A DNA stretch of 64,000 nucleotides from Candidatus Omnitrophota bacterium (GTDB taxonomy: Bacteria > Omnitrophota > Gorgyraeia > Gygaellales > UBA12090). The stretch is from NCBI GenBank assembly GCA_030674475.1, contig JAUSCZ010000017.1, forward strand, positions 46,264 to 110,263, in the 5' to 3' direction. Position 1 is the stretch's first letter. Each line of letters starts with the position of its first letter. Below are positions 26,787 to 42,149 of this stretch, one piece after another. The notes beneath the pieces are model-generated. The model was not told where the DNA came from and searched no databases. It was given only the letters and a program-made list of their open reading frames with translations. Made by a program: the position numbers and the translations under genes.

Positions 26787-28075
26787 AATTTATACTTGGC
26801 GCAGAAATCCGATACTACATTAAGTATGTAATCCAACTCTTTTTCTCCCATATCTTGATGTATGCCTATATGCAAGCCATTATTGCCTATATATTCGGCA
26901 TTGGGAAATTGGCCTAACTTATAGCCTAAATATTCAAAGCCGGGGCATTGGGTAGGCATGGATAAAAATAAATTACGAGTATCTACGCCGTTTTCTTCCA
27001 AATATGAGACCAAATCATCTCTGCTAAATTTATTTTTTTCACCCAGAACAATCGGAAAGGCATGTGGGCCTATCTTTTCATGGGCTTCTTCTTTAATAGT
27101 ATATAAATACGGCTCAAACTCTTTAAATTTGTCCAACATATATAATAAATTATTGCGTCTTTTTTCTAAAATCTTATAATATATTTCTATATTCCCTAAC
27201 CCGATAGCCGCCTCCAATTCGTTCATCTTGCTGGAAAAACCGATACGCTCAAAAACAAAACGTATATCCTTATCTTTATCTTTGCCGTATTTAAACCTCT
27301 TATCACAATAGCCGGAATTAATATTGAGTATACAACTTTCACACTTGCAAGCCCTTCCATGCGCCCTTAAAGACCTCAAAACCTCGGCAAAATCAGCTTT
27401 GTCCGTAACCACCATACCGCCTTCGACAGTTGTAATCATATGTGCTACGTAGAGACTAAATGCCGCCATATCGCCTAAAGTGCCGATATTCTTGCCCCGA
27501 TAAACTGCCCCGTATGCCTCTGCCGCATCCTCTATAACGAAAAGTTTATGTTTTTTAGCAATGTCATTTATTGTATCCATCTCCGCCGGTTTACCCATAA
27601 GATGGACAGGCATTATAGCGCGCGTCTGTTTAGTAATTGCTTTTTCAATCCGGGAAACATCGATATTTAAAGTATGCCTTTCCACATCTACAAATATCGG
27701 CTTAAAACCGGCCTGCAGGACAGCGTTGCCTGTCGCCACAAAAGATAAAGCGGGCACTATTATTTCATCACCCCTTTTCGCTCCATAATCATAGAGAACG
27801 GCCAATGCTAACGCATCCGCATCTGTGCCGCTGCTTACCGATACCGCTTCTTGCGCGTCTATAAGTTTAGCAAATTTTTCCTCAAATTTACGCACGTATT
27901 TTCCGCTGGAAACCCTTTCAGAATCTAATATTTCTCCAATCAGTTTTTTTGAATATTCAGTGATAGCTATGGTTCCAAATGGAATTCTCATTTTCTGCAT
28001 GACTCTTTTGCCCCTTTCCTCTCCAGCCATCTCAAAATTTTGTTTACTAAGCCCTTCTCGGGGTTTGCTCCGCAT
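26783..28075 (-). CDS. DegT/DnrJ/EryC1/StrS family aminotransferase
   Basis: The true start is probably an internal Met (MQKMRIPFG...). The overall pattern of the family is present. Confidence 0.8.
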   Translation of the reverse strand: MRSKPREGLSKQNFEMAGEERGKRVMQKMRIPFGTIAITEYSKKLIGEILDSERVSSGKYVRKFEEKFAKLIDAQEAVSVSSGTDADALALAVLYDYGAKRGDEIIVPALSFVATGNAVLQAGFKPIFVDVERHTLNIDVSRIEKAITKQTRAIMPVHLMGKPAEMDTINDIAKKHKLFVIEDAAEAYGAVYRGKNIGTLGDMAAFSLYVAHMITTVEGGMVVTDKADFAEVLRSLRAHGRACKCESCILNINSGYCDKRFKYGKDKDKDIRFVFERIGFSSKMNELEAAIGLGNIEIYYKILEKRRNNLLYMLDKFKEFEPYLYTIKEEAHEKIGPHAFPIVLGEKNKFSRDDLVSYLEENGVDTRNLFLSMPTQCPGFEYLGYKLGQFPNAEYIGNNGLHIGIHQDMGEKELDYILNVVSDFCAKYKL

Positions 28076-28090: not shown

Positions 28091-29101
28091 TCATAAACCT
28101 ATCTCCCGCAATCTTGCCGCCTTCTTGGCCTCTTTCCTCCAGTATGAAAGCAAAAAATCCAAAGTCTCATCTATATCATAATTCTGCTTCCAGCCGGTCT
28201 GTAGTTTGAATTTCTCCACACAAGGGACCTGCAAAGTAACATCCGCCGGCCTCAAAAGAACAGGATCACAGCGGGTAGGGATTGTTTTTTTGCTCATTGC
28301 AATAAGTTTTTTAAGAAAATCTCCTACGGTTATAGTAGCGGTACCGCCTATATTATAAACCTCCCCGTATTTACAATGAATTATTGCCTGCCAATACGCG
28401 GCTACGGCATCGCGCACATCAATGATGGTGCGGACAGAATCAAGGTTGCCATGCACTAACTCTTTCGATAGACCCTGCTCTATCCAGGCAATTTGTTTAG
28501 CAAAAGAAGTGGCAAAAAGATCGGTCCTTCTTGGATTAATATAAGTAAACATGCGCGTGCGAATAATGCGCATACTATAACTTCTAAAATAACTAAAACC
28601 CAATAAGTCCTGCGCTGTTTTAGAAACAGCATACGGGCTTACAGGGTTCAACGGCGTATCTTCTCTAATAGGAACATATTTGGGGTCAACTTGGCCATAA
28701 ACTTCTGAAGTGCTGCAAAGCTGTATCGCAGGGTCAATTTTAGCAAGCCTTATAGCTTCAAAAAGATTAACCGTACCTAAAATGTTATTGCTTAAAAAAC
28801 TGTGCGGGCTGATAAAAGATGTGCGCACATTAGCGTATGCTGCCAAATGAAACACCACCTCCGGCCTTACATCCGCTATGACCGCAAAAGTCGAACCAAA
28901 ATCCATAAGATCGGCTTCATGTACGCTAATTTTACCAGTAATCTCTTTTATGTTGTCGTTCTGTGTGGTGCTGTGCCAACGTGAGATCCCATGAACTTCA
29001 ATCTCAGGGAAATTTTGCAGAATATATTCTGCCAAGTAACTTGCGCCTGAGCCAGAAATTCCCGTGATTAAAACTTTAGAAATTTTTATATTAGAAACCA
29101 T
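28091..29101 (-). CDS. SDR dehydratase (GDP-mannose 4,6-dehydratase-like)
   Basis: ITGISGSGASYLAEYIL resembles the Gmd N-terminus; YAVSK catalytic motif. Confidence 0.6.
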   Translation of the reverse strand: MVSNIKISKVLITGISGSGASYLAEYILQNFPEIEVHGISRWHSTTQNDNIKEITGKISVHEADLMDFGSTFAVIADVRPEVVFHLAAYANVRTSFISPHSFLSNNILGTVNLFEAIRLAKIDPAIQLCSTSEVYGQVDPKYVPIREDTPLNPVSPYAVSKTAQDLLGFSYFRSYSMRIIRTRMFTYINPRRTDLFATSFAKQIAWIEQGLSKELVHGNLDSVRTIIDVRDAVAAYWQAIIHCKYGEVYNIGGTATITVGDFLKKLIAMSKKTIPTRCDPVLLRPADVTLQVPCVEKFKLQTGWKQNYDIDETLDFLLSYWRKEAKKAARLREIGL

Positions 29102-29135: not shown

Positions 29136-29849
29136 TTAACTACTTTTACGCCAAAAGAACAATTCCCTTAACACCTCAAAAAGATAAGCGCTGCCCCACT
29201 GTATAACTTTTAACTTTCTTTCCCCGCCTATACGCACTGGTTCATCGCCAGGAATATCAGCGCATTTTAATTTTAACTTTGCCGCCCTTACTGACAATAA
29301 AGGCTCAACGCCAACTTTAGTATGGAACAATTTTTCTTCTACTCGGTAGCTTTCTTCTTTATCTAAATCTAACTCTTTAAAAATTTCTGTCTTCCAGGCG
29401 CGAAACATAACCAAAGAATCTGTGTATTTTGAACCGTAAAAGAAATTTATCAAAGAAGTGAACATTTTATTACCAAAAGCAGTAACACAATCATCATCAT
29501 AACTTTTTGCGCCCTTCGCATATCTGGATACTATAACCATATCATATCCTTCTTTCATCTTAGCGACTAAAGGAGGCATGCGTTCAGGTATAGAGTTGCC
29601 ATCCGGGCTAAAAGTAATTACTATGTCTCCCTCAATGTAAGGCAAAATCTCAATATAGGCATAACGCAAACCCTTATTTTCTTGGGAAAATAACAGATAA
29701 CCTTTTTGTTTACAATACTCAATTGTGCCATCGGTTGATCCGCCATCAACAATCAAGAGCTGGTCATACCAATTATTTTCTATGCGAGGCATAATCTCTT
29801 TCAGGCCGCTTAATTCGTTAAGCGTGAGAATCAGCAATGTCACTTTCAA
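29136..29849 (-). CDS. Family 2 glycosyltransferase
   Basis: LIVDGGSTDGT and other GT2 motifs. Confidence 0.75.
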   Translation of the reverse strand: MKVTLLILTLNELSGLKEIMPRIENNWYDQLLIVDGGSTDGTIEYCKQKGYLLFSQENKGLRYAYIEILPYIEGDIVITFSPDGNSIPERMPPLVAKMKEGYDMVIVSRYAKGAKSYDDDCVTAFGNKMFTSLINFFYGSKYTDSLVMFRAWKTEIFKELDLDKEESYRVEEKLFHTKVGVEPLLSVRAAKLKLKCADIPGDEPVRIGGERKLKVIQWGSAYLFEVLRELFFWRKSS

Positions 29850-29974: not shown

Positions 29975-31108
29975 TCACTTTATAAGATTTCCAACAAGCC
30001 CTGTCGAGTATTTAGCAATTGCGAGAGAAGAAGTTAATCCTGGAGATTCTATTCCTATTAAATTTATAAAACCTGTCAATCCTTTATCCGTTTCTTCTTG
30101 TATAATAAAATCCCTAAAATCCTCACCTTCTCTTTGAAGTTTTGGTCTAATACCAGCAATATCCTCGTAAAGATCGTCTTTATTTATAAAAGGAAGCAGC
30201 CTATTAGCCGCAGAGTAGAAATTATTTTTCTGAGAGCTATCCACAGAATAATCCTTATTTCTATTGTTTAGGTATTTCTCATCAGGCCCAAGGCGCAAAC
30301 TTCCACACAGATCCAAAGTAGCATGCACTCCTAAACCAGCGCTTTTTGGCTTGGGGACAGGGTATACTAATCTTTTAATGAAATGGCTTTTTGAGTGATT
30401 AACTCTGAAATACTGCCCTTTACAATAATGAAGCCTATAGTTAAAATGCTCTATATCTATACCCCCCATCTCAGCAATACGATCAGAATCCAATCCTGCG
30501 CTATTTATCACAACCTTTGTATTCAAAAATATGGTTTCATTGTTATTTCTAACCATTACAATATACCCGTAAACGTTCTTTTTGATATCAATTACTTCAG
30601 AAACATAAGACATTATCGCGCCGTTGTTTTGAGCAGTATCTTGAAAAAGTTGCATTAATTTATGAGAATTAATAATGCCGGTTGATGGAGAATGAAGCGC
30701 TGCCACTCCATTTACGCTTGGTTCAATTTTTTTTAAATCAGCCGCATCTATCAGCCGCAAATCATCAACGCCGTTATCTTTGCCTCTTTGAAACAACTCT
30801 TCAAGCGCGGGGATTTCATCTTTTTCACTGGCAACAATCAATTTACCGATTTTCTTAAAGGGTATATTGTTCTTCTGGCAGATTTCATACAATAATGATC
30901 TGCCTTCTACACACATTTTTGCTTTTAAAGTATCTTTAGGATAATAGATGCCCGCATGGATTACTTCGCTGTTACGACTACTTGTTTCTTGACCAAAACT
31001 ATTATGTCTTTCTATGACAACGATTCCTTTGTATTTCTTTGATAATTCCGCGGCTATGGCCAATCCGATTACCCCGGCGCCAATAATCAAAATATCAGCT
31101 TCATCCAT
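29975..31108 (-). CDS. FAD-dependent oxidoreductase (LhgO/DAO family)
   Basis: DILIIGAGVIGLAIA dinucleotide-binding motif. Confidence 0.75.
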   Translation of the reverse strand: MDEADILIIGAGVIGLAIAAELSKKYKGIVVIERHNSFGQETSSRNSEVIHAGIYYPKDTLKAKMCVEGRSLLYEICQKNNIPFKKIGKLIVASEKDEIPALEELFQRGKDNGVDDLRLIDAADLKKIEPSVNGVAALHSPSTGIINSHKLMQLFQDTAQNNGAIMSYVSEVIDIKKNVYGYIVMVRNNNETIFLNTKVVINSAGLDSDRIAEMGGIDIEHFNYRLHYCKGQYFRVNHSKSHFIKRLVYPVPKPKSAGLGVHATLDLCGSLRLGPDEKYLNNRNKDYSVDSSQKNNFYSAANRLLPFINKDDLYEDIAGIRPKLQREGEDFRDFIIQEETDKGLTGFINLIGIESPGLTSSLAIAKYSTGLVGNLIK

Positions 31109-31112: not shown

Positions 31113-31832
31113 TTATTTACCTTTTAGAAATATCTTTTTTGCCTTAATGTAGCGTTCTGGAGTACCAATATCGATAAACAAGCCGGAAACCGGATAGCCA
31201 AAAATGCGATTAGAGACCATCTCCGGGAAAAAATTTCGTTCCAAAGAAAACTTCGCTTGCCTGGGCATCATACCGAATATCTTCTTATCAAAAATGTATA
31301 CCCCAGCATTTATCAGGCACTTTTTTGCCGAAATGTTCTTTTCCCGAAAATTAAGTATGCGCGAAGACCTGTCTATTTCAATCTCCCCATATTCTTTACC
31401 GCTAGCTACCTGCCGCAATAGAATCGAAACCGGGGATCTATTTTTCTTATGGAATTTCAGAAAAAGCCGCGGATTAAACTTGCATAACGAATCTCCGTTT
31501 AAAACAAAAAAAGGATTACTTTTAATTAACCCTTTCGCGTTCTTAACTGCTCCCCCGGTATCAAGCGGCCTTTCCTCGCGCGAAAAGCGTATGTCCAAAC
31601 CCGGGAATCTTCCGGAAGAATAATAATCCTTAATGATACCCGCCCGATATCCTGTACCCAGAATAAACCGCCTGAATCCAAAACCAGCAATATACTTGAT
31701 GAGCAGGTCAAGGAAAACATAATCGCCGATTTTAACCATCGGCTTAGGAGTGCCACCGGAAACCTTCCGTAACCTCTTCCCTATCCCTCCACAGAGTATA
31801 AAAACATCTATGTCTTTAAGAGTGCCATACAT
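31113..31832 (-). CDS. Sugar-phosphate nucleotidyltransferase
   Basis: ILCGGIGKRLRKVSGGTPKPMVKIG motif. Confidence 0.7.
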   Translation of the reverse strand: MYGTLKDIDVFILCGGIGKRLRKVSGGTPKPMVKIGDYVFLDLLIKYIAGFGFRRFILGTGYRAGIIKDYYSSGRFPGLDIRFSREERPLDTGGAVKNAKGLIKSNPFFVLNGDSLCKFNPRLFLKFHKKNRSPVSILLRQVASGKEYGEIEIDRSSRILNFREKNISAKKCLINAGVYIFDKKIFGMMPRQAKFSLERNFFPEMVSNRIFGYPVSGLFIDIGTPERYIKAKKIFLKGK

Positions 31833-31834
31833 CT

Positions 31835-32827
31835 TTAAATCTGCTGCGGGTTATAATAAATCACCTGACTACCCTCATTTTCAAAACAAAATTTAACTTC
31901 CAGCAATTCTTTTAATGCCTTTTGCACTCTCCGCCGCCTTGCCGGAGAGACAAATAAAAGCATAAAGCCGCCACCGCCTGCACCTAACAGCTTTCCTCCT
32001 AAAGCGCCGTTCTTTATAGCCTTATCATATATATTGTCAATTTCAGGACTCGAGATTTTTTTGGAAAGTTTCTTCTTTATCTGCCAGGATTCGCGCAGGA
32101 GCTTTCCGAAATCAGCAATATCCCTGTTGCTGTTTAAGATATCAACGGCATGGTCAACCATATGCCGCATCGCGGTCAACTCATGCTTATTACTAGAAGT
32201 ATTCTTTATCTGGTCGGCAGCGATCTCCGATGAAAAACGAGATAGCCCCGTAAAAACCAACATCAAATTCTCCTGCAACTCCTGGATCCTTTCCTTCTGG
32301 ATGGTCACCGGCTCTGCCCGGAAATTGTGGTCGTTTAGAAAGATAATCTTATTGAAACCTCCGTAGGCAACCGCAACCTGATCCTGAGAGCCGACATTTT
32401 CCTTAAGGACATTCCTCTCTATATGTATAGCCTGTTTGGCTAAATCGTTTTTTGAGATAATATTGCCTTTTAAGGCATATAGAGAATTGAGCATGCCTAC
32501 GGTAAAAGCCGAACTCGAGCCCAATCCCGAACGCGCAGGCAAATCCCCGTCATGATGAACCTCTACGCCTCTTTGCACCTTAAATAATTTAAGAAGCGCC
32601 CTTACTACGGGATGCTGAATTTCATTAACAGATTTGACGTTTTCTATAAAAGAATAAACTATCCGGTGTTTATGTTCGAAAAAAGGAGGCAGATATCTGA
32701 TGCTTATATAACAGTATTTATCAATAGTTGTTGATAAAACGGCACCGGTATTCTCCTGATACCAGGCGGGATAGTCCGTACCACCGCCGAAAAACGAAAT
32801 CCGAAAAGGAGTTTTACTGATAATCAT
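31835..32827 (-). CDS. GHMP family sugar kinase (heptose-7-phosphate kinase HddA-like)
   Basis: TPFRISFFGGGTDYP N-terminus and PARSGLGSSSA ATP-binding motif. Confidence 0.75.
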   Translation of the reverse strand: MIISKTPFRISFFGGGTDYPAWYQENTGAVLSTTIDKYCYISIRYLPPFFEHKHRIVYSFIENVKSVNEIQHPVVRALLKLFKVQRGVEVHHDGDLPARSGLGSSSAFTVGMLNSLYALKGNIISKNDLAKQAIHIERNVLKENVGSQDQVAVAYGGFNKIIFLNDHNFRAEPVTIQKERIQELQENLMLVFTGLSRFSSEIAADQIKNTSSNKHELTAMRHMVDHAVDILNSNRDIADFGKLLRESWQIKKKLSKKISSPEIDNIYDKAIKNGALGGKLLGAGGGGFMLLFVSPARRRRVQKALKELLEVKFCFENEGSQVIYYNPQQI

Positions 32828-34296
32828 TCCAGCACCTTTCTTTTTAGCCTGGTTTTTGTCATTTCCTCAATATGGGTTCTGACCTTTTTGCCGAATTTAC
32901 TCTCCAGCATATTCAAATAACCGGGATTTTCGAAATACCGGTGAAACGCGTCATCCCTGAATTTTACGACTTCTTTCGGGTTGATATATTTCGTCGGAAG
33001 CGGAAGCATTTCGTAGGAATGTTGGGAAAACCCGTGCCACTCTTTCGGAAGTTCCCACCCCTGCCTGCGGGCGATATCGTAAAGCCTGGAGCCTGGATAG
33101 GCCATAGCGCAATAAAAATTCACGAATTCGCAATTAAGATCAATTGCCATATCGATTGTTTCCTGCATAGTCTGCACCGTATCATCGGGAAGCCCGAAAA
33201 TAAAGTTGCCTATAACCCTTATGCCTGCATCTTGAATACTCCTCACGACATTGGTTATATCTTTGACCCTCATTCGCTTAGAAGCGCCGTCCCTTACATC
33301 GGGATTTGCCGATTCAATCCCCAACGCAAGCCAATTTATGCCCGCCTTTTTCATCTTCAGAAGATTCTCCGGCTTTACTGTATCAACCCGGGCATAAACC
33401 CAGATGTTTAAGTCATAACCCTTAGCTATCAATAGATCCACTATTCTCATATAGTGGTTTTCGTCCAGGACAAAAAGCTCATCTACGATTTTTACATTCT
33501 TTACCCCGTATTTAGTTACCAATAGCCCTATCTCCTGGACTACCATTTCCGGACTCCTGTATCTTATGCCTGGCTTGCCGAAAAGGGCATTAATACAGCA
33601 AAAAACACAACTGTAGGGGCAGCCTAAGCTGGTGTATATCGCCGCATAAGGCATCCTGTTTTCTATATCGTCAAAACAATGCCAATTATGTGCCCGATAT
33701 TTTTCCATCGGCAACAAATCCCAGGCAGCAATCGGCAATTCTTCATCCAGGTTTTCAATAAGCGAGACTTTATGGTTATTTCTGATATTTCCATCTTCAT
33801 CGTAATACCATAAACACGTAATATTAGAATAAATGCCTTTCCCAGATTTTATCGCGCCAATTAACGCCATTAATGTAGCAGGGCCTTCTCCTTCAATAAC
33901 AAAATCGACTTTTTCTTCTATTAGTGTCTGTTTGGGTAGAGCGGACGGATGCAGGCCACCTATAGCGATTTTCCCGAGAGCATTCTCCTTCAACGCCTTG
34001 CAGATTTTTCCGGCAATAGTCATATTCTGCGTGGATGCCGAAGGCTGGGATCCGTAAACTATTACTGCGGATAACAGCGGGTTAATTTTATTAACCTTTT
34101 TTGCTGTCTCATCAGGTGAGAAATTCTCAGCGTTAGCATCAACGATGGCCACGTTAATCCCGCTATTCCTCAGATATGCCGCGATTACCGCAACCCAGAA
34201 AGGCGGCTCAATAGCAGAATAATCCTTTCCTAATCCCTGATAAACCTGCTTATGATCCCCCGGATTTATTAAAACAACTTCTATCTTCCCGCTCAT
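32824..34296 (-). CDS. B12-binding radical SAM protein
   Basis: N-terminal B12-binding-like domain and an rSAM cluster motif, LGCPYSCVFCC. Confidence 0.8.
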   Translation of the reverse strand: MSGKIEVVLINPGDHKQVYQGLGKDYSAIEPPFWVAVIAAYLRNSGINVAIVDANAENFSPDETAKKVNKINPLLSAVIVYGSQPSASTQNMTIAGKICKALKENALGKIAIGGLHPSALPKQTLIEEKVDFVIEGEGPATLMALIGAIKSGKGIYSNITCLWYYDEDGNIRNNHKVSLIENLDEELPIAAWDLLPMEKYRAHNWHCFDDIENRMPYAAIYTSLGCPYSCVFCCINALFGKPGIRYRSPEMVVQEIGLLVTKYGVKNVKIVDELFVLDENHYMRIVDLLIAKGYDLNIWVYARVDTVKPENLLKMKKAGINWLALGIESANPDVRDGASKRMRVKDITNVVRSIQDAGIRVIGNFIFGLPDDTVQTMQETIDMAIDLNCEFVNFYCAMAYPGSRLYDIARRQGWELPKEWHGFSQHSYEMLPLPTKYINPKEVVKFRDDAFHRYFENPGYLNMLESKFGKKVRTHIEEMTKTRLKRKVLE

Positions 34297-35297
34297 ATAT
34301 TTTTCTTGATATTCTCTATGATGCTTTGTTCATCCAGCTTGTTTAACGCGTGCAAATGCTCCCTGTTGCCAATATCAAAAACATACGCGTCGTTAAAACC
34401 CATTCTTTTCAATCGGGTATTGAGGCTATAGTTATCGATTACGCTTGAAACCAGGCTATCTATCCCGCCTTTATTGATAAAACCTTCTTCGAGAGTTATA
34501 ACACATTCATATTTTCGCAAAACTTTCGCAAAGAATCTCTCATTCAACGGCTTTAATAGAAAAACATCGATAACTCCAATTTTTTCTCTATCAAATGCGC
34601 CTGCCGCTTTTATGGCTTTATGGGTCATATATCCAGTCGAAACCAGGCATATCTTTTTACCTTTTCGTATCTGCGAAAAACCATCCTCTATCCTTATCTT
34701 ATCTGTTTCCGAATAAATCCGTGGCAAAGGCTTACCGTCAAGTCTTATATACTTTGGCCTTTTTACCTTTATCGAATATTCGACAAACTTACCTGACAAA
34801 ACCCAGTCGCTAGGCGAAAATACCATAATATTCGGCAAAACCCGCATTATGGTAATATCCTCAAGGCAATGATGCGTAGGGCCGGAGACATCATAACTCA
34901 AGCCGGCGCCTACGCCAATTAAGTTTATGTTTATCTCTTTCAGCTGAGAGTGCAGGGAAAGGTTAATCCGTATCTGCTCGTATGCCCTCATTGTCAGAAA
35001 CGGGGCTATCGCATAGGCATAAACTGTAAAGCCTTCAAGGGCAAGACCCGTAGATACATTGATAAGGTTCTGCTCGGCAATGCCGACGTTTATAAACCTG
35101 TCGCTGAATTTTTTCCTTAAATTGTCGAGTTTAGGAGAACCGAAATCCGCGCAGAGGAAGAAAATATTTCTATCCTTATGCATAAGATTAAAAATATTTT
35201 CGATAAAGACATCCCTCATATTGTTTATTTCGGTCTTCATTCTAACTCCGAAATTATGGTATCGACTTCTTCCGGGCTTAAATTTTTGATGTGGCAT
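34293..35297 (-). CDS. Transketolase, C-terminal (pyrimidine-binding) subunit
   Basis: FINVGIAEQNLINVSTGLALEG motif of the split transketolase B subunit. Confidence 0.8.
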   Translation of the reverse strand: MPHQKFKPGRSRYHNFGVRMKTEINNMRDVFIENIFNLMHKDRNIFFLCADFGSPKLDNLRKKFSDRFINVGIAEQNLINVSTGLALEGFTVYAYAIAPFLTMRAYEQIRINLSLHSQLKEININLIGVGAGLSYDVSGPTHHCLEDITIMRVLPNIMVFSPSDWVLSGKFVEYSIKVKRPKYIRLDGKPLPRIYSETDKIRIEDGFSQIRKGKKICLVSTGYMTHKAIKAAGAFDREKIGVIDVFLLKPLNERFFAKVLRKYECVITLEEGFINKGGIDSLVSSVIDNYSLNTRLKRMGFNDAYVFDIGNREHLHALNKLDEQSIIENIKKNI

Positions 35298-36061
35298 AGC
35301 GGATCTGTTTCAAGGCGCCGAACACCCTTGCCTTTTACGGTATCGGCGATTAATAATTTAGGCTTACCGTTATTTTTCGCTTTAAGGCGTTTTAAGGAAG
35401 TATGTAATTTATCCATCTGGTGCCCATTAACACGTTCTACTTCCCACTTAAAAACCTTGAATTTCTCGCCAAGCGGCTCAAGATCCAAGATGTTCCGACA
35501 ATAATCCAGCATGCATATTTTATTATTATCAATAATAACGATAAGGTTGTCTAAATTATGTTCGCCGGCAAACATTACTGCCTCCCATACAGAACCCTCG
35601 TACAACTCGCCGTCTCCCAGCAAAACAAACACTTTTTCATTTCTTTTCTTCCTTTTTAATGCCAGAGAAATTCCACAGGCAACCCCCAAGCCGTGGCCTA
35701 AAGAACCGTTAATTGTTTCAAAGCCGGGAATAATGGCATCCGGAATCCCCCCTAAAATTGAACCTGCCTTGCAAACTCCTCCCAGTTCCTCTTTAGGAAA
35801 ATACCCCAAATCCGCAAGCACGGGGTAAAACGATATTGCGCCGTGACCTTTGCTGATAATAAACCTATCCCTTTTTTCCCATTTTATATCCCGGGAGTTA
35901 AACCTTACAATTTTTCCGTAGTATAATACCGTAAATATTTCAACCGCCGATAGCGAAGAGGCAAGTCTCGTCTCAGGAGCAGTTTTATGTATTTTTAAAG
36001 TCTCTCTCCGCACCCATAAAGCCTTCCGATCAAGGAAATCGTATATTTTCTTGGATTTCAT
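35237..36061 (-). CDS. Transketolase, N-terminal (TPP-binding) subunit
   Basis: SKGHGAISFYP...GSLGHGLGVACG TPP-binding motifs. Confidence 0.8.
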   Translation of the reverse strand: MKSKKIYDFLDRKALWVRRETLKIHKTAPETRLASSLSAVEIFTVLYYGKIVRFNSRDIKWEKRDRFIISKGHGAISFYPVLADLGYFPKEELGGVCKAGSILGGIPDAIIPGFETINGSLGHGLGVACGISLALKRKKRNEKVFVLLGDGELYEGSVWEAVMFAGEHNLDNLIVIIDNNKICMLDYCRNILDLEPLGEKFKVFKWEVERVNGHQMDKLHTSLKRLKAKNNGKPKLLIADTVKGKGVRRLETDPLCHIKNLSPEEVDTIISELE

Positions 36062-36069: not shown

Positions 36070-37014
36070 TTAGACGTTTCCGTATTTGTTGTTTGAGATT
36101 ATCTTGTATGCCTTAATGAGCTCCCTTATCCCAAATTCAAGCGAAAGAATCGGCTTAAACCCGGTTTTTTCAATCTTTTCATTGGAAACAATATAATCCC
36201 GCTTATCCGGGTCCTCGCCTATAGGAGACTCCAGGTATACAAAATCAGCTATCTGTTCTTTTATCTTTGCGCAAAGCTCAAGCTTTGAGAGATTCGCATT
36301 GGACAAGCCGACGTTATACGGTTCATCTTTCACTGTATCAAAATTATCTATCGCATGGATAAATGCCCTGGCCACATCGCGTATATGAATATAGTTCCTT
36401 TTAAAATGCCCTTCAAAAACCACCACAAAACGGTCATTAACAGCACGGTAAGTAAAATCATTTACCAATAAATCTATCCGCATCCTGGGGGACACGCCAA
36501 AAACAGTAGCCAACCTAAAACTTACGGAGTTCTTCCTTTCCAACACAATTTTCTCAGCTTCCATTTTTACCCTGCCGTATAAAGTAATCGGATTCAGGGG
36601 CGTCTCTTCCGTGCAATAGATACCCTTCTGACCAATACCGTATCCACTATTGGTAGTCGGTATAATTATCCTTTGCTCCTTAGACGCCAGCTTGGTAAGC
36701 ATGGCTATGGCGTCCCGGTTAACGGTAACGGCAGCCGTCTTATCCCTATTGCATAAAGGAGCTCCCACCAATGCTGCCAGTGGAATAATATAATCCACTT
36801 CTTTTAAAAGCGGTTTTACGATACCCTCATCGCGGACATCTCCCCGAACTACTTTAAATTTATCATAGGCGCAACAATCAAGCAAAGAATTCTGACTATA
36901 CATAAAATTATCTACGACAGTGACATCATGCTTTAGTTCTAAAAGTTTAGGGACGAGAACTGAACCTATGTAACCCGCGCCGCCTGTAATCAATATTCGC
37001 ATTTTAGAAGCCAT
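36070..37014 (-). CDS. NAD-dependent epimerase/dehydratase
   Basis: ILITGGAGYIGSVL motif. Confidence 0.75.
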   Translation of the reverse strand: MASKMRILITGGAGYIGSVLVPKLLELKHDVTVVDNFMYSQNSLLDCCAYDKFKVVRGDVRDEGIVKPLLKEVDYIIPLAALVGAPLCNRDKTAAVTVNRDAIAMLTKLASKEQRIIIPTTNSGYGIGQKGIYCTEETPLNPITLYGRVKMEAEKIVLERKNSVSFRLATVFGVSPRMRIDLLVNDFTYRAVNDRFVVVFEGHFKRNYIHIRDVARAFIHAIDNFDTVKDEPYNVGLSNANLSKLELCAKIKEQIADFVYLESPIGEDPDKRDYIVSNEKIEKTGFKPILSLEFGIRELIKAYKIISNNKYGNV

Positions 37015-37050: not shown

Positions 37051-38157
37051 TTACCTGTTACTTAATATTTTCACTATTCCTGCCGCGGGTATTTTCTCCA
37101 GCCCTACATTTACATATGCCTCACGACTACTTAATTCATCTCCAATAATACCGTAAGACTGCCAAAGAAAATAACTAGCCGGCTTATCCCATTTTCCATA
37201 TTTTTTATCTGTAACTAACCTTAAGGTCTTTATTGCGTTCTGATAATCCTTGATATCATAATATAGTTTTCCAAGGAAAAACAGTACGTCATCGTAATAT
37301 TTACTTTCAGGGAATTCCTTCAATAAGGCCGCATAAGACTGTAATGCTAAGTCCATACGGTAAGCTAAATGGTAATTTCTGGCTTTATAAAATAATGCTG
37401 AATCCGAACTACCTTTAAGGTGCCTGAGCGCAGACCGAATGTATAAATTTTGATAAATATATACGAATTTATTTCCGAATATTTTAAAATAGAAATCCAT
37501 AAGATGATCAAAGATGTGACTTTGTTTCAAGATAGGCGTGGACCTGCGGGGTTCGCCCATAAGAGGCAAGACACGTCGATAGATCGCAATAATGTCTTTA
37601 TACTCCATCCCTGAGTATTGTTTTAATGCGGAAATTTTCTTTATCTCATCTAATAATTCTGGCTGGGCAGTCAAATCATCCAATGAATACATGTCACCTC
37701 TGAAATCAACAAAAACAGTATTCAATGCCGTATCAAATACACACCATTTGTTATTCAGGAAAACTTCATTCAAGGTATGCGGAGAAATACCATTTTTATC
37801 TAACAGCATTGCGTATCGGCTTGGGATACCTGCTATTCCCAAAAGCAGATTTAATGTTCTTGCCTGAAAATCGCAATATGCCTCAGCGTATATTAAAGAT
37901 TCTAATGGTTTACATGAATACGGCGTTCCTTGAAGAAATTCATTATTGACCACATAATTAAACAAAGATAAGGACTTTTCGTAATCAGTCCTATACCCAT
38001 TTGTTTCTTGGGCAACTATGGTGTTTAAAATTAATCTTTGATAGGCATGATATCGTAACCTATACGGAAGGAATAATGAAATTACTGGCGACAACAGTAT
38101 TAAAACAGTTGCTATTATAAGAAAAAGTCTGCAAATAAATTTTAAACGCTTATGCAT
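37051..38157 (-). CDS. Transglutaminase-like domain membrane protein with TPR-like C-terminus (paralogue of 10586-11629)
   Basis: N-terminal TM helix. AYCDFQARTLNLLLGIAGIPSRYAML...HTLNEVFLNNKWCVFD aligns with the paralogue's CDYQAKVFNVLLSKKGIPSRYAML...HTISEVYFHNRWVVFD. Confidence 0.5.
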   Translation of the reverse strand: MHKRLKFICRLFLIIATVLILLSPVISLFLPYRLRYHAYQRLILNTIVAQETNGYRTDYEKSLSLFNYVVNNEFLQGTPYSCKPLESLIYAEAYCDFQARTLNLLLGIAGIPSRYAMLLDKNGISPHTLNEVFLNNKWCVFDTALNTVFVDFRGDMYSLDDLTAQPELLDEIKKISALKQYSGMEYKDIIAIYRRVLPLMGEPRRSTPILKQSHIFDHLMDFYFKIFGNKFVYIYQNLYIRSALRHLKGSSDSALFYKARNYHLAYRMDLALQSYAALLKEFPESKYYDDVLFFLGKLYYDIKDYQNAIKTLRLVTDKKYGKWDKPASYFLWQSYGIIGDELSSREAYVNVGLEKIPAAGIVKILSNR

Positions 38158-38171: not shown

Positions 38172-38528
38172 TTACGGCGAAGTTTCAACATTCTGATAAG
38201 CTAATAACATAGTCTTATATGTTTCCAACTCCTCTTTGAGCCTTTCGTATTCGCGGGTTTTCCAGTCAAGGAACTGCTGGATAAGCTGAAATTTTATCCT
38301 AATTCCCTGAGGGGTGAGCAGATACATATAGCTTAACTTATTCTTGGCATTCTTGAAGTTTTTTGCCTCTATTATGCCCTTGTCAATGAGGGCGTTGAGG
38401 AAGTAGTTAATCTTGCCCAGGCTTATTTTGAGTTTCAGGGCCAGGTCGCGCTGGGTTATGGCGGGATTTTGCTCTAACTCTTTGATAACAGAGAGGATTT
38501 TTTCGTGGTGCAATATGTCGGATTTCAT
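38172..38528 (-). CDS. MarR-type winged-helix transcriptional regulator (EPS-locus-associated family), copy 1
   Basis: MKSDILHHEKILSVIKELEQNPAITQRDLALKLKISLGKINYFLNALIDKGII is the wHTH. The true start is cat at 38526-38528, and the longer ORF-track start is an extension. 90% identical to copy 2. Confidence 0.65.
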   Translation of the reverse strand: MKSDILHHEKILSVIKELEQNPAITQRDLALKLKISLGKINYFLNALIDKGIIEAKNFKNAKNKLSYMYLLTPQGIRIKFQLIQQFLDWKTREYERLKEELETYKTMLLAYQNVETSP

Positions 38529-38574
38529 AGAAAAACTATGGGTCGATGGTCTATGGTTCATCTTTTTAAAATTC

Positions 38575-38958
38575 TTAAAGCAACCGTATAATCCCTTTTT
38601 CAAAATTAATCGTCAACTTGAAATTCTTCAAAAAGTCTAAGCCTAAAAGTCCATCTACAAAACCCTCTTCAGGTAAATCATGGCAAGCGACTTCTAAATT
38701 CTTCATTGTCTTACCTAACGCTTTAATACTTTTTAAACTTACCACTGGAACAATTTCAATTCCACTCCCGGTTACAATACGAGTACGGGAAGGGGAACCT
38801 CCCGGATCGCAGCCAATAGCTTCAGCTGCCTCAAAGGGAATCATAGTTCGCGAACAACCCGTGTCTAACGCTAAACGCAAGGTCCGTTCGGCATTCTTCC
38901 TAATTGTGCCCTCTATAATGATTATGGGAAATTTATGGTTAAAAGAAGTCTTTGACAT
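38575..38958 (-). CDS. Retropepsin-like (clan AA) aspartic protease
   Basis: LALDTGCSRTMIP contains the D-T/S-G catalytic motif in a retropepsin-like context; 127 aa. Confidence 0.7.
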   Translation of the reverse strand: MSKTSFNHKFPIIIIEGTIRKNAERTLRLALDTGCSRTMIPFEAAEAIGCDPGGSPSRTRIVTGSGIEIVPVVSLKSIKALGKTMKNLEVACHDLPEEGFVDGLLGLDFLKNFKLTINFEKGIIRLL

Positions 38959-39188
38959 TAAAACATTACCACCAAATCCTTTGGTATGGGCCCGGTATAA
39001 TCGATAGCAAGCGGTTCTTTATATTTCATCTGCTCTCTGTATATAGTGTCTCTCTTTTTACTGTGAGCAATTACCGCCCCCTTGCTTAACCGGTTCATCT
39101 TATCAAACTCATAGTTCGCCAGCAAGATCCACTCTTTAGGAAATCTCTTCCTAATGCTTATTAAGCTTTCCACTCTACTTTTTACCAT
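38958..39188 (-). CDS. Small partner protein of the retropepsin-like protease (hypothetical)
   Basis: 76-aa ORF translationally coupled (ATGA-type overlap) immediately upstream of the protease. Confidence 0.35.
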   Translation of the reverse strand: MVKSRVESLISIRKRFPKEWILLANYEFDKMNRLSKGAVIAHSKKRDTIYREQMKYKEPLAIDYTGPIPKDLVVMF

Positions 39189-39221
39189 TTTTCTTTACCT
39201 CCTGATTTAAGTTAAGAAAGT

Positions 39222-39330
39222 ATTTTGCTCTAACTCTTTGATAACAGAGAGGATTTTTTCGTGGTTTAAGATGTCGGATTTCATGGGAAAATCAAAGGTC
39301 GATAGTTTATAGTCAATAGTCAATGGTCCG
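39222..39330. repeat. Cassette-junction repeat, copy (partial: regulator-5'-end homologue + heptamer tract, no hairpin)
   Basis: ttttgctctaactctttgataacagagaggatttt...atgtcggatttcat followed by gtcgatagtttatagtcaatagtcaatggtcc. Homologous to 38440-38565, 39923-40106, 42530-42665, 46133-46262 and 47168-47305. Confidence 0.7.
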
Positions 39331-39431
39331 GAAAAAAATTACTTCTTTAAATAATTTCGAAAGGCGTGCAGCATTTTTGAGATGTCTTCACAACACTTAT
39401 AAAATAAATCAAATTCTGTAGATTTTCTGTG

Positions 39432-39710
39432 TCATCTGTATGTTAACGGATATTGCTCCGGATTAGCTAAGATTTCTGCGGATAAGTCTATATCTAACTT
39501 TGGCCAGTATAGATGATGATTATGTATCAACTTTACGTTAGTTATTGACGAAATATTAGCGTCTTTAAACCAAGGATACTCACTGAAAGATAAGAAATAT
39601 TCTCTATCTTTCAGGAAAATCCAAAATCCATGTTCTGAAATATTAGTTATTTCTGGCCTTAAAATGTTCTTTCCATTCTTTAATGATTTCATTCCTATGC
39701 CTTTCCACAA
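39432..39710 (-). CDS. DUF2442 family protein (TA-like pair with DUF4160)
   Basis: YPWF...LYWPKLDIDL motif pattern. Confidence 0.6.
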   Translation of the reverse strand: MWKGIGMKSLKNGKNILRPEITNISEHGFWIFLKDREYFLSFSEYPWFKDANISSITNVKLIHNHHLYWPKLDIDLSAEILANPEQYPLTYR

Positions 39711-39891
39711 TTTTTTGTAAAGTTCTTAGCTGCCTTTTAGAAAAACCAGTGTAATTTACCAATTCAACGGCTGGCTCCAACCAGAATTTCGCTTCCCCAT
39801 CCGGAGAAATAATATGAACATGCATCTTCATTTCTTCTTTAGAGAAAAAATGAAACCTGTAATTCCCTATTTTAAATACTGTCGGGCTCAA
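39643..39891 (-). CDS. DUF4160 family protein
   Basis: YRFHFFSKEE..MHVHI motif pattern; overlaps the downstream DUF2442 gene. Confidence 0.6.
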   Translation of the reverse strand: MSPTVFKIGNYRFHFFSKEEMKMHVHIISPDGEAKFWLEPAVELVNYTGFSKRQLRTLQKIVERHRNEIIKEWKEHFKARNN

Positions 39892-39907
39892 AGTTTACTA
39901 TCCCTCA

Positions 39908-40054
39908 TTAAACGATTTTATCCTTGTAAGTGCGATAAATCGCACCGCTACCGCGAATTTTCCGAATAAGTTTGCGCTGGGTTATAGCGGGGTTTTGCTC
40001 TAACTCTTTGATAGCAGAGAGGATCTTGTCGTGGTTTAATATGTCGGTCTTCAT
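39908..40054 (-). CDS. Truncated divergent paralogue of the MarR-EPS regulator (~48-aa mini-ORF) embedded in junction repeat
   Basis: MKTDILNHDKILSAIKELEQNPAITQRKLIRKIRGSGAIYRTYKDKIV. The first ~30 aa match the regulator N-terminus. The divergent tail LIRKIRGSGAIYRTYK is shared with the copies at 46133-46262 and 47168-47305. Confidence 0.4.
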   Translation of the reverse strand: MKTDILNHDKILSAIKELEQNPAITQRKLIRKIRGSGAIYRTYKDKIV

Positions 40055-40106
40055 GGGAAAATCAAGGGTCGATAGTCTATAGTCGATAGTCAATAGTCAA
40101 TGGTCC
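39923..40106. repeat. Cassette-junction repeat, full copy (hairpin GTGCGATAAATCGCAC + regulator-5' homologue + (GTCNATR)5)
   Basis: The hairpin at 39930-39945 has a 6-bp stem and a TAAA loop. Then comes cgctaccgcgaattttccgaataagtttgcgctgggtta..ttttgctctaactctttgata.cagagaggat. Then the heptamer tract gtcgata gtctata gtcgata gtcaata gtcaatg. Confidence 0.7.
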
Positions 40107-40173
40107 AGAAAAAAATTACTTCTTTAAATAATTCCGAAAGGCATGTAGCATTTTTGAGATGTCTTCGTAACGC

Positions 40174-40473
40174 TTATAAAAAAATGCCTTTAATTTTGTT
40201 TTTGGTTCCCGCTTTAGCGGGATAACACAGGCTAATATTGATCTTTTCATATAATGTTTCAGGGGCAATGTCAGCGCCATTTGGCCAGGCAATTGTACCG
40301 CCTTCAATTTTTGCTTTTTTGAAGAATTGTAAATTCTTTAATGGCTTAAAAATATATCCTTTCCTAATGTACTCTATAAAATTCACATCTCCACCTTTAC
40401 CATCATCAAACATAATATAATAAACATAATTATTTTTATACTTAATTGTTTTTACTTCATTCATATCCCACAT
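40174..40473 (-). CDS. DUF2442 family protein (second copy)
   Basis: [17 protein letters not shown]-terminal motif. Confidence 0.55.
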
Positions 40474-40475
40474 AT

Positions 40476-40620
40476 CTCACCTCAAGTTAAAGGGATAATT
40501 TCTCTTATTGTTTTGCCTGCTCTAGCTAATTCCCAATCTTCTTTCAATTCTGTGGAATGGAGATCTATCCATTCCCTGAATAATGTTACCTCTTTAGATA
40601 GTTGCGAATTGTTACCACCT
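40476..40620 (-). pseudogene. DUF4160 gene remnant (C-terminal fragment only)
   Basis: The minus-strand translation ...FREWIDLHSTELKEDWELARAGKTIREIIPLT* resembles a DUF4160 C-terminus. No N-terminus or start codon is present. Confidence 0.35.
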
Positions 40621-40771
40621 CATTCAAAGAACCTATTGATATCTGGATAAAACGCGATAAATCTGTATCGGAATTCCTGCCTTCACCTTCAGCGATATTT
40701 AAACTGATAGAAACTGCGGCTCTGTTTCACTGGCGAACTTGACTGATTCTTGCCATCCCGTTTTTTCTCTA

Positions 40772-41490: not shown

Positions 41491-41597
41491 CTGTTCCCTT
41501 GCCTATCAGGAATCAATGTTGTCAATAAGTCCTCACTGAATTATCCATTTTTGGGTATTTGTTCACGGTCTGAACGCATACTTACAGAAAATTTATA

Positions 41598-41616
41598 TTA
41601 TCATATTTTATGATAA
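41598..41616. promoter_or_regulatory. Palindromic putative operator TTATCATAtttTATGATAA upstream of MNT/HEPN operon
   Basis: Perfect 8-bp inverted arms with a 3-bp spacer, ~110 bp upstream of the MNT start at 41490. Confidence 0.3.
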
Positions 41617-41689
41617 AATCAAGGGTTTTTTAGCTTTACTTGTTACTTGTAACAGTGAACGGAGGAAACTTGCAATTTTTCCCCTCACC

Positions 41690-42130: not shown

Positions 42131-42149
42131 CTCGGTTACACTCCTTCAT

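Follow-up and report, generated by a model that had tools for sequence, protein, structure and literature searches.

A recurrent gene cassette predicted to make an unusual heptose-derived sugar nucleotide in a surface-glycan locus of Candidatus Omnitrophota

The capsular heptose pathway of Campylobacter jejuni is composed of GmhA, HddA, GmhB, HddC, the dehydrogenase Cj1427, the ColD-like C3-dehydratase of HS:5, C3/C5 epimerases and C4 reductases. Cj1427 is a ping-pong dehydrogenase whose tightly bound NADH is re-oxidised by alpha-ketoglutarate to give L-2-hydroxyglutarate, and together with a ColD-like C3-dehydratase it forms GDP-3-deoxy-4-keto-heptose in vitro (PMC10680097). Deoxy-keto sugars can be branched by thiamine diphosphate (ThDP)-dependent enzymes, as has been shown for members of the DC class and the alpha-KADH2 class and has been proposed for transketolases encoded by split genes (PMC12247030, PMC9306805). 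Here we analyse a stretch of 64,000 nucleotides (the window) from the 225-kb contig JAUSCZ010000017.1 of a Candidatus Omnitrophota metagenome-assembled genome (MAG), whose NCBI proteins (MDO8748043-8748111) were assigned by exact protein matches. Its glycan locus holds a gene cassette built around a split transketolase and a cobalamin-dependent radical S-adenosylmethionine (SAM) enzyme. We see about an even chance that this cassette makes a heptose-derived C9 sugar nucleotide by oxidation, 3-deoxygenation, ThDP-dependent addition of two carbons and radical tailoring. The genes that bear on this reading, like all genes of the glycan region, lie on the minus strand:

36070-37014, minus strand: extended short-chain dehydrogenase/reductase (SDR) of the Cj1427 type, here SDR1, a predicted GDP-heptose C4-dehydrogenase using alpha-ketoglutarate (homology to PDB 6VO6/6VO8)
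35237-36061 (35237-36013 with the NCBI start), minus strand: N-subunit of the split transketolase, ThDP-binding (PF00456, E 7.5e-32)
34293-35240 (longest open reading frame (ORF) to 35297), minus strand: C-subunit of the split transketolase, pyrimidine-binding and C-terminal domains (PF02779, PF02780)
32824-34296, minus strand: cobalamin-domain (class B) radical SAM enzyme (PF02310, PF04055)
31835-32827, minus strand: HddA-like GHMP kinase, predicted heptose-7-phosphate anomeric kinase (NF049969, HddA)
31113-31832, minus strand: sugar-1-phosphate nucleotidyltransferase, HddC/ManC-like, predicted guanylyltransferase (PF00483, NF052502, NF049965)
29975-31108, minus strand: LhgO-like FAD oxidoreductase, predicted to re-oxidise L-2-hydroxyglutarate to alpha-ketoglutarate (NF008726, PF01266)
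26783-28075 (26783-27991 with the NCBI start), minus strand: sugar 3-dehydratase of the E1/RfbH type, predicted to depend on pyridoxamine phosphate, annotated as a DegT aminotransferase
48616-49164, minus strand: GmhB-like HAD-IIIA phosphatase of the lipopolysaccharide (LPS)-core region, probable supplier of the phosphatase step

The initial annotation, made from the sequence letters, had described a module of split transketolase, GHMP kinase, nucleotidyltransferase, FAD oxidoreductase, radical SAM enzyme and SDR at 31113-36061. Domain matches confirm all of these genes on the minus strand; the transketolase, radical SAM, kinase and nucleotidyltransferase genes lie inside that interval, but the FAD oxidoreductase and the SDR lie just outside it. 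The idea that such a module serves a dedicated route to an unusual sugar, derived from an NDP-heptose or larger, is supported by what follows. The pairing of SDR and LhgO-like enzyme as a Cj1427-type oxidation with its recycling step, and the neighbouring DegT gene as a 3-dehydratase, had gone unrecognised.

Homologues of the radical SAM enzyme with 50-77% identity occur in 80 GTDB genomes, and the same partner genes recur alongside them. The carriers belong to Nitrospirota, Omnitrophota, Elusimicrobiota, Planctomycetota (including anammox bacteria), Desulfuromonadia, other Deltaproteobacteria, Campylobacterota, Lentisphaerota, Verrucomicrobiota, Spirochaetia and Patescibacteria, and one is a Methanoperedens MAG. 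All ORFs of the related loci were clustered, and the 48 that span 15 kb or more, referred to below as large loci, were scored for each partner:

two-subunit ThDP enzyme of any kind: 44 of 48 large loci
split transketolase: 34 of 48
E1 alpha/beta pair: 10 of 48
GHMP kinase: 41 of 48
SDR of the window type: 40 of 48
DegT-like protein: 39 of 48
nucleotidyltransferase: 38 of 48
Fcl-like SDR: 27 of 48
LhgO-like flavoenzyme: 11 of 48

The association of these genes goes far beyond chance, and the cassette is best read as a conserved, horizontally spread unit, a description of which was not found in the literature searched. RmlC-like or Fcl-like epimerases are present in related loci. The fullest comparison is offered by an Arcobacter MAG (locus L048), where the operon reads LhgO, GmhA, HddC, GmhB, kinase, ColD-like dehydratase, TIM barrel protein, SDR, Fcl, transketolase N-subunit, transketolase C-subunit and radical SAM enzyme. 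Reduced or rearranged versions are found in Azospirillum. Azospirillum sp. B510 carries SDR, NUDIX and kinase genes together with both transketolase subunits, an SDR and an aldo/keto reductase, without the radical SAM enzyme (6 kb examined on each side), and a second gene of the epimerase/dehydratase family stands directly 3' of its transketolase. Plasmids of A. lipoferum 4B and A. ramasamyi carry Fcl, radical SAM enzyme, kinase and NUDIX hydrolase, the ThDP enzyme and SDR1 being absent within 14 kb.

The predicted oxidation at C4 rests on similarity to a characterised enzyme. SDR1 aligns over its full length (residues 5-313) with PDB 6VO6/6VO8 at about 60% identity (E 7.7e-114); 6VO6 we take to be Cj1427, the C. 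jejuni GDP-heptose C4-dehydrogenase, and the depositor's molecule name matches. It has a GxGxxG motif at residue 12 (GAGYIG) and a YxxxK motif at residue 146 (YGRVK), and is predicted to be a Cj1427-type GDP-heptose C4-dehydrogenase with alpha-ketoglutarate as oxidant. Since oxidation of this type yields L-2-hydroxyglutarate, the LhgO-like flavoenzyme is a predicted recycler that would return it to alpha-ketoglutarate. On the LhgO model NF008726 the flavoenzyme scores 268 bits, in two stretches and below the 299-bit cutoff, and it also matches the type-2 glycerol-3-phosphate oxidase (214 bits). The LhgO of the cassette on plasmid pDMC1 of Solidesulfovibrio magneticus RS-1, which PGAP names lhgO, reaches 327.7 bits and so stands above the cutoff.

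The protein annotated as DegT has RfbH as its best NCBIfam match (283 bits) and E1 (3BCX/3BB8) and ColD (2GMS) as its best PDB matches. At the position of the Schiff-base lysine it has a histidine, as do E1 (His220) and ColD (His188), and its motif YVAHMIT aligns with YPAH(220)HIT of E1 and YSHH of ColD. This histidine is found in 21 of 21 cassette members of the window type (ATa) and in 29 of 29 of the ColD-like type (ATb), and the unrelated aminotransferases that fall in the same cluster retain lysine. The window protein also contains a CKCESC-x8-C motif that aligns with C251, C253 and C261 of E1, with alanine in place of C193 and one extra cysteine. The equivalents of C251 and C253 are kept in 20 of the 21 ATa proteins with histidine, whereas the counterpart of C261 comes from the pairwise alignment of the window protein; the ATb members are ColD-like and lack the E1-type cysteine motif. 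Because histidine replaces the catalytic lysine, we assign this gene, by its active-site signature, to the sugar 3-dehydratases of the E1/ColD type. A role as a C4 aminotransferase leading to an amino sugar was ruled out on the same residue.

The heptose origin of the predicted sugar is well supported by comparison with orthologous cassettes, and since these carry gmhA, gmhB and hddC, the entry into the pathway is most likely the canonical GDP-heptose route. In the window itself, the GHMP kinase matches the HddA model NF049969 with E 1e-49 and 170 bits (cutoff 600 bits), its best PDB matches are 3K85, 4N3O and 4USK, and it resembles HddA-type kinases including WcbL. The nucleotidyltransferase scores 167 bits on NF052502 and 151 bits on NF049965 (HddC, 300-bit cutoff), and ManC-like models match as well. 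In L048 the corresponding proteins, GmhA (206 bits), HddC (263 bits), GmhB (181.6 bits on TIGR00213 against a cutoff of 149.6 bits) and the kinase, are all encoded side by side, directly 5' of the genes for dehydratase, SDR, transketolase and radical SAM enzyme. The window kinase is 54% identical to the L048 kinase, which sits between gmhB and the dehydratase gene, and the window nucleotidyltransferase is 38% identical to the L048 HddC. Moreover, a Spirochaetia locus (L034) has a nucleotidyltransferase-GmhB fusion and a GmhA-like gene, and the S. magneticus cassette ends in a GmhA-like SIS protein.

The initial annotation had located a GmhB-like gene 13 kb away, at 48616-49164, and had noted that gmhA is missing from the window, and both observations hold, the second by tblastn. 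The HAD-IIIA protein scores 162.7 bits on the GmhB model NF006506 (cutoff 178 bits) and stands above the cutoffs of TIGR01656 and TIGR01662. A weak GmhA-like tblastn match at 3682-3825 falls in a protein that PGAP names DUF3473, and was rejected as GmhA. Since GT9 heptosyltransferases are encoded at 52631-53734 and 55896-58145 in the LPS-core region, the genome presumably draws on its LPS-core heptose pathway for GmhA and GmhB. The further claim, that the pathway departs from the canonical heptose route, is not supported, given the L048 order of LhgO, GmhA, HddC, GmhB and kinase and the S. magneticus cassette, where a GmhA-like SIS protein accompanies an LhgO above cutoff; a complete canonical gmhA-hddA-gmhB-hddC set was not found in the window but is present in orthologous cassettes.

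The split transketolase has as its best PDB relatives the split transketolase 6YAK for the N-subunit and 6YAJ for the C-subunit. We aligned 40 N-subunits and 48 C-subunits from the cassettes with E. coli TktA, E. coli Dxs and the split transketolase of Carboxydothermus hydrogenoformans (positions are given in E. coli numbering). The residues that bind ThDP and Mg2+ (D155 and N185, in the 40 N-subunits) and the glutamate that activates the cofactor (E411, in the 48 C-subunits) are invariant; a GDG motif stands at residue 149, and H66, H261, H473 and R358 are also retained. Replaced are the two histidines that contact the donor C1 hydroxyl (H26 by arginine and H100 by isoleucine, each in 39 of 40 members), H461 (glycine) and R520 (glycine, serine or alanine) of the phosphate site, where R358 is kept, and the aspartate of the acceptor C2 hydroxyl, D469, which is serine in 46 of 48 members. 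H26 and H100 are kept in E. coli TktA, in the C. hydrogenoformans enzyme and in a split transketolase of a Phaeobacter plasmid.

Protein engineering has changed several of the same positions. The H102L/H474S variant of the Geobacillus transketolase TKgst takes pyruvate as donor, and S385D/H462I/R521H performed best of the variants on L-rhamnose and L-arabinose, two acceptors without a phosphate (PMC11997939). The engineered H102L has its counterpart in H100I, and H461G and R520G/S/A fall on the engineered positions H462 and R521. The exchange of H26 and H100 suggests a non-hydroxylated donor. The slot of this enzyme can be filled by other ThDP enzymes, namely by transketolase lineages that keep H26 and H100 (Azospirillum argentinense Az39 and B510), by a DXS-like enzyme (L063) or, where the transketolase is absent, by an E1 alpha/beta pair, of which there are two kinds, near the radical SAM gene. 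At least four ThDP lineages therefore occupy one slot beside enzymes that make deoxy-keto sugars, an arrangement known to mark acyl-branched sugar synthesis. Because E1 alpha/beta pairs replace the transketolase in related loci, we infer that the split transketolase acts as a carboligase. A function as supplier of sedoheptulose 7-phosphate was rejected on the active-site residues and on this replacement. The arrangement in B510, with transketolase and SDR but without the radical SAM enzyme, favours a C4 ketone made by the SDR as the acceptor of the carboligase; the SDR is the most obvious maker of a carbonyl for the transketolase there, although the second gene of the epimerase/dehydratase family could also provide it.

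The radical SAM enzyme is, by its domains (PF02310 at residues 29-145, PF04055 at residues 221-383), its CxxxCxxC motif (CPYSCVFC at residue 226) and its modelled fold, a class B (cobalamin-dependent) member. Its NCBIfam matches all lie below cutoff: HpnJ with 169 bits (cutoff 578), BchE with 147 and AprD4 with 85 (cutoff 500). AprD4 is the best PDB sequence match (E 1.1e-18). The AlphaFold2 model (pLDDT, its per-residue confidence score, 86) was matched by Foldseek with probability 1.0 to TsrM, AprD4, MgmA and OxsB; the fold neighbours TsrM, AprD4, MgmA, OxsB, CysS and TokK have template modelling (TM) scores of 0.63-0.71 at 14-19% identity. Methylase, dehydratase and cyclase were equally close by NCBIfam ranking, PDB search and AlphaFold2/Foldseek comparison, and none was singled out. 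The family is very large, with more than 7,700 database proteins at E<1e-60 against one of its members. It is also separable from the ThDP enzyme, as Azospirillum plasmids carry one without the other.

A second radical SAM enzyme with a B12 domain is encoded at 9135-10565. It is 31% identical to the cassette enzyme and adjoins a second transglutaminase-like gene (10586-11629), a pairing that mirrors the transglutaminase-like/TPR gene upstream of the cassette (37051-38157). In many related loci one to three further B12-radical SAM paralogues directly follow the cassette enzyme.

Taken as a pathway, these genes would begin with phosphorylation of D-glycero-D-manno-heptose 7-phosphate at C1 by the HddA-like kinase; removal of the C7 phosphate and transfer to the nucleotide by the HddC-like enzyme would then give GDP-heptose, with GmhA and GmhB provided by the LPS-core pathway, as homology and the orthologous cassettes suggest. 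SDR1, given its 60% identity to a characterised enzyme, would oxidise C4 and pass the hydride to alpha-ketoglutarate, and the LhgO-like flavoenzyme would return L-2-hydroxyglutarate to alpha-ketoglutarate. The E1-type dehydratase, judged by its active-site signature, would remove the 3-hydroxyl group to form GDP-3-deoxy-4-keto-heptose. The split transketolase might then add a two-carbon acyl group, probably an acetyl derived from pyruvate in the window clade, at the C4 ketone; we propose this role because the thiamine machinery is kept while the residues for hydroxylated donors and sugar-phosphate acceptors are lost, and it would parallel that of YerE and the E1-type enzymes for other branched sugars. 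On the same scaffold the B12 radical SAM enzyme may methylate a carbon, close a ring or dehydrate a diol. Finally, a small GT2 glycosyltransferase might load the sugar on polyprenyl phosphate, from which a membrane glycosyltransferase of the GT-C fold could transfer it to a surface glycan.

One specific product deserves mention, although we consider it improbable. If an acetyl derived from pyruvate were placed on C4 of GDP-3-deoxy-4-keto-heptose and an HpnJ/BchE-like radical SAM reaction joined C7 to the acetyl carbonyl, the result would be a C9 carbocycle of the caryose type, a 4,8-cyclo-3,9-dideoxy-nonose. The analogy with caryose would cover the number of carbons (7+2), the deoxy positions 3 and 9 (the latter a methyl group), the quaternary C4 and a C5 epimerisation that an Fcl-like enzyme could provide; by our reading of the Fischer conventions only C5 would have to be inverted. 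We hold this reading low because transketolase and radical SAM enzyme are separable. Caryose biosynthesis was described as unknown in 2022 (PMC9092360). A betaproteobacterial radical SAM query returned no Burkholderia or Trinickia among the named entries of its top 120 matches, most entries there being without an organism name.

Several points weigh against the C9 reading as a whole. The kinase and the nucleotidyltransferase remain far under the HddA and HddC equivalog cutoffs (170 of 600 bits and 151 of 300 bits), GmhA was not detected within the window by tblastn with three GmhA-like queries, and among the carriers of the cassette are Patescibacteria and one archaeal MAG, organisms that may be without a heptose pathway. 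The window flavoenzyme is just 28% identical to the S. magneticus LhgO and slightly under the LhgO cutoff, and no E3-type reductase is visible that would serve an E1-type dehydratase. The natural acceptors of transketolase are aldehydes, not ketones, and the branching of keto sugars by a split transketolase is still unproven even for miharamycin. A. lipoferum 4B has the radical SAM enzyme, the kinase and Fcl, with no ThDP enzyme or SDR1 within 14 kb. Moreover, SDR1, the 3-dehydratase and the Fcl-like enzyme (the last in 27 of 48 large loci) would by themselves amount to a full 3-deoxy-heptose pathway like that of C. jejuni HS:5, so the ThDP enzyme could act elsewhere on the molecule.

This last point opens the way to an alternative in which the ThDP enzyme and the radical SAM enzyme leave the sugar nucleotide alone and instead produce a small substituent, for instance acyloin-derived or methylated, which is joined afterwards to a plain 3-deoxy-heptose from the other enzymes. 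The remaining genes alone would give a complete modified-heptose pathway of the C. jejuni kind, many related loci have extra B12-radical SAM paralogues and methyltransferases (the window has its second B12-radical SAM enzyme at 9135-10565), and transketolase and radical SAM enzyme are separable in Azospirillum plasmids. However, the clustered cassette loci show no recurrent carrier protein, ligase or acyltransferase that could serve such a substituent. The ThDP slot is moreover filled in 44 of 48 large loci together with enzymes that form keto sugars, and acyl-branched sugar pathways are known by just this pairing of a deoxy-keto-sugar maker with a ThDP enzyme. We therefore regard a separately made substituent as unlikely.

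Alternatively, the two-carbon addition might extend the chain instead of branching it: an AprD4-like radical SAM enzyme would convert the C6-C7 glycol of GDP-heptose to a C7 aldehyde, and ThDP-dependent addition of two carbons would give a linear 6-deoxy-nonose, SDR1, 3-dehydratase and Fcl-like enzyme making the ring 3-deoxy position separately. AprD4 is indeed both the best PDB sequence match and one of the top fold neighbours of the radical SAM enzyme, aldehydes are what transketolases naturally accept, the genes for C-subunit and radical SAM enzyme are immediate ATGA-coupled neighbours in most loci, and the three other enzymes would suffice for the 3-deoxy step, to judge by C. jejuni HS:5. 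Against this, the radical SAM enzyme matches AprD4 weakly (85 against 500 bits), and HpnJ and BchE score higher; B510 has the transketolase and a Cj1427-like SDR but no radical SAM enzyme that could produce the aldehyde, and a ThDP reaction on an NDP-sugar aldehyde is without precedent. Chain extension thus appears quite unlikely to us, and branching at C4 is the reading that we carry forward.

The initial annotation had favoured a genuine two-subunit transketolase that boosts sedoheptulose 7-phosphate or a higher ketose phosphate for an NDP-heptose route free of GmhA. Pfam and NCBIfam do place both subunits in the transketolase family, and the absence of gmhA from the window would be in line with such a route. 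H26, H100, H461, R520 and D469 are nevertheless replaced in essentially all members of the window clade (H26R, H100I, H461G, R520G/S/A, D469S), whereas characterised and ordinary split transketolases keep them; the E1 alpha/beta pairs of 10 of the 48 large loci are unable to make ketose phosphates, and gmhA and gmhB are found in orthologous cassettes. The supply of pentose or heptulose phosphates by this enzyme is thereby contradicted, and we consider the model very unlikely.

Hardly credible, finally, is a salvage role in which the transketolase disposes of 5-deoxyribose from the 5'-deoxyadenosine of the radical SAM enzyme, in the manner of 7-deoxysedoheptulose formation in Synechococcus, since the lost phosphate-binding residues would suit an unphosphorylated acceptor but the donor-hydroxyl histidines are lost too, the cassette has no nucleosidase or phosphorylase, E1 alpha/beta enzymes stand in for the transketolase at other loci, and B510 has the transketolase without any radical SAM enzyme. 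The conversion to 7-deoxysedoheptulose is reportedly catalysed by a transketolase. One paper reports that 5-deoxyadenosine is salvaged in an unusual way to give a bioactive molecule (PMC8102628), and the accompanying preprint gives the product as 7-deoxysedoheptulose.

The cassette is embedded in further genes, some of which may take part in using the sugar:

38172-38603, minus strand: MarR-family EPS-associated transcriptional regulator, opening the glycan locus (TIGR04176, 120.9 bits, cutoff 88 bits)
37051-38157, minus strand: transglutaminase-like/TPR protein
29136-29849, minus strand: small GT2, predicted polyprenyl-phosphate sugar synthase (PF00535; best NCBIfam matches AglJ and dolichyl-phosphate hexose transferase)
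28091-29101, minus strand: Gmd/LegB-like extended SDR, 4,6-dehydratase-like (PF16363, 213 bits; LegB, Gmd and RmlB models below cutoff)
24492-26786, minus strand: polytopic membrane protein of 764 residues, candidate lipid-carrier-dependent transferase (hydropathy scan)
5156-6457, minus strand: GT-C glycosyltransferase of the PMT_2 family that may use the sugar from polyprenyl phosphate, its link to the cassette being putative (PF13231, PF02366)

ATGA overlaps at three junctions (N-subunit/C-subunit, C-subunit/radical SAM, radical SAM/kinase) indicate one translationally coupled operon. The longest-ORF starts of both transketolase subunits and of the dehydratase run 16-28 codons 5' of the likely true starts, which for the N-subunit and the dehydratase follow from the NCBI annotation and for the C-subunit from an internal ATG at 35240 that overlaps the stop codon of the N-subunit. 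Long ORFs on the plus strand at 31204-31623 and 32872-33411, antisense to the nucleotidyltransferase and radical SAM genes, are almost certainly not genes. According to the hydropathy scan, the 764-residue protein has about 10-11 hydrophobic segments followed by a C-terminal soluble domain; it matches no Pfam family and does not resemble the DUF6044 protein that stands at this place in locus L001. Relatives of the Gmd/LegB-like SDR adjoin the radical SAM gene in L013, L016 and L030, which are loci without SDR1. Orthologues of the small GT2 occur in 13 related loci and in S. magneticus, and a PMT-like GT-C protein is located within the S. magneticus cassette.

In proteobacterial cassettes a NUDIX hydrolase gene stands beside the kinase, at 15497-15976 in S. 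magneticus RS-1 pDMC1 (L086), 16744-17382 in L083 and 3995-4579 in L087, and the two Azospirillum stretches examined for it (L083 and L087) have no annotated nucleotidyltransferase. Five additional genes adjoin the reduced cassette of A. lipoferum 4B plasmid AZO_p6 (L083, 2598-9760) and of A. ramasamyi (L085, 2666-9827); they encode a PEP (phosphoenolpyruvate)-utilising enzyme, a gamma-glutamyl-hydrolase-family protein, a cytidylyltransferase, an APS (adenylyl sulfate)-kinase-like protein and a methyltransferase, and in L083 a sulfotransferase lies near the reduced cassette. The set resembles what we take to be the O-methyl phosphoramidate genes Cj1415-Cj1420 of C. jejuni. O-methyl phosphoramidate decorates the capsular sugars of C. 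jejuni, including heptose.

Elsewhere in the glycan locus, a nonulosonic-acid gene set of the legionaminic/pseudaminic type (15815-24495) encodes a NeuB-like synthase, a GNAT protein, a 4,6-dehydratase-like SDR, a DegT aminotransferase with the lysine, a GFO oxidoreductase and a CMP-transferase, and then an AsnB-like amidotransferase and an N-acetyl sugar amidotransferase. Together with the cassette, this set indicates that the locus encodes at least two unusual activated sugars. A sugar-nucleotide module at 1225-5132 includes a true GDP-mannose 4,6-dehydratase (4143-5132) and a second HddC-like nucleotidyltransferase (1933-2646), along with a methyltransferase, a GT2 and a member of the DUF3473 deacetylase family. 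The glycan locus is separated from the LPS-core genes by an island of small toxin-antitoxin-type genes (38900-47300), with two DUF2442 proteins, a HEPN and nucleotidyltransferase (MNT) pair (40919-41490), a PIN protein (42695-43048), a Pol-beta-NTase/HepT fusion (43674-44519), an AbiEii-like protein (45130-45750), a DUF4258/DUF433 pair (46525-47153) and a short ORF (41846-42130) with only a partial match to a papain-family protease. The window has two winged-helix HTH_24 regulators, the MarR_EPS protein (38172-38603) and a second one (42245-42628) 4 kb upstream within the island. The G+C content is 36-40% over most of the glycan locus and the island (1-46000), 41-43% in the cassette (32-36 kb) and 40-45% in the LPS-core region (46000-62000), a pattern compatible with horizontal acquisition of the glycan genes. 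Scans for tRNA genes and Rfam families across the window found nothing.

If the C9 reading is true, branching or extension of sugars by ThDP enzymes of the transketolase or E1 type would be common in the surface glycans of many, mostly uncultured phyla, while it has so far been tied to actinomycete antibiotics, with the split-transketolase version unproven. The window clade would then represent a natural donor switch, in which evolution changed several of the positions that engineers mutate in transketolase, and LhgO genes in glycan loci would gain a concrete task in the recycling of L-2-hydroxyglutarate. More than 7,700 B12-radical SAM homologues (E<1e-60) would gain a connection to the chemistry of sugar nucleotides, and the labels "DegT aminotransferase" and "transketolase" at cassette loci would be functionally misleading. 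Should even the caryose version apply, uncultured bacteria would widely carry in their surface glycans either caryose, which is known from one plant pathogen only, or a sugar closely related to it. Culturable carriers of the cassette are S. magneticus RS-1 (pDMC1), A. argentinense Az39 and Azospirillum sp. B510.

Compared with the known systems, the cassette shares with the C. jejuni capsular heptose pathway the HddA-like kinase, the HddC-like nucleotidyltransferase, an SDR with about 60% identity to 6VO6 and a 3-dehydratase of the histidine type, and related loci add Fcl-/RmlC-like epimerases and, within some orthologous cassettes, gmhA and gmhB. It differs in that the window lacks gmhA and in that neither kinase nor nucleotidyltransferase comes near its equivalog cutoff. 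To our knowledge, the capsule loci of C. jejuni have neither a B12 radical SAM enzyme nor a dedicated LhgO. The pathway in C. jejuni also proceeds without a ThDP enzyme, the word "transketolase" being absent from the text of its description (PMC10680097).

A second comparison is offered by the acyl-branched LPS sugars, that is yersiniose (YerE/YerF), erwiniose (ErwE) and caryophyllose (MMAR_2332). In YerE-type pathways an E1-type dehydratase likewise leads to an NDP-3-deoxy-4-keto sugar, onto whose C4 a ThDP-bound acyl anion is added (PMC9306805, PMC12247030). The likeness is one of pathway logic, not of family membership: YerE-type enzymes are members of the decarboxylase (acetolactate-synthase-like) superfamily with a CDP-3,6-dideoxy-4-keto-hexose as substrate, whereas the cassette has a split transketolase or an E1 alpha/beta pair, and its sugar is predicted to be a heptose, probably linked to GDP. 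In contrast to the YerE pathways, the cassette has an added B12 radical SAM enzyme, and its C4 oxidation would fall to an enzyme of the Cj1427 type, which keeps the 6-hydroxyl group intact in C. jejuni.

A third comparison concerns the ThDP enzymes of antibiotic clusters. The split transketolases proposed for miharamycin and amipurimycin and the alpha-KADH2 enzymes of aldgarose, kibdelomycin and avilamycin each consist of two subunits and fall into the two superfamilies seen in the cassettes, and they too are placed beside oxidoreductases that form keto sugars. Krug et al. listed 13 split transketolases, all from Streptomycetes, none of which was shown to work in vitro. The antibiotic enzymes belong to secondary-metabolite clusters, whereas the cassette is found in surface-glycan loci of Omnitrophota, Nitrospirota, Planctomycetota, Campylobacterota, Desulfobacterota, Lentisphaerota and others, and the window clade, in contrast to the antibiotic split transketolases, has H26R and H100I. 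With the class B radical SAM enzymes, namely the methylases TsrM, MgmA, CysS and TokK, the diol dehydratase AprD4, OxsB and the ring-forming HpnJ and BchE, the cassette enzyme shares the B12 domain and the CxxxCxxC motif, but it forms a very large family of its own below every NCBIfam cutoff. On the reading favoured here, the cassette would combine heptose modification of the C. jejuni type with ThDP-dependent sugar branching, and it adds to them a large, uncharacterised family of radical SAM enzymes.

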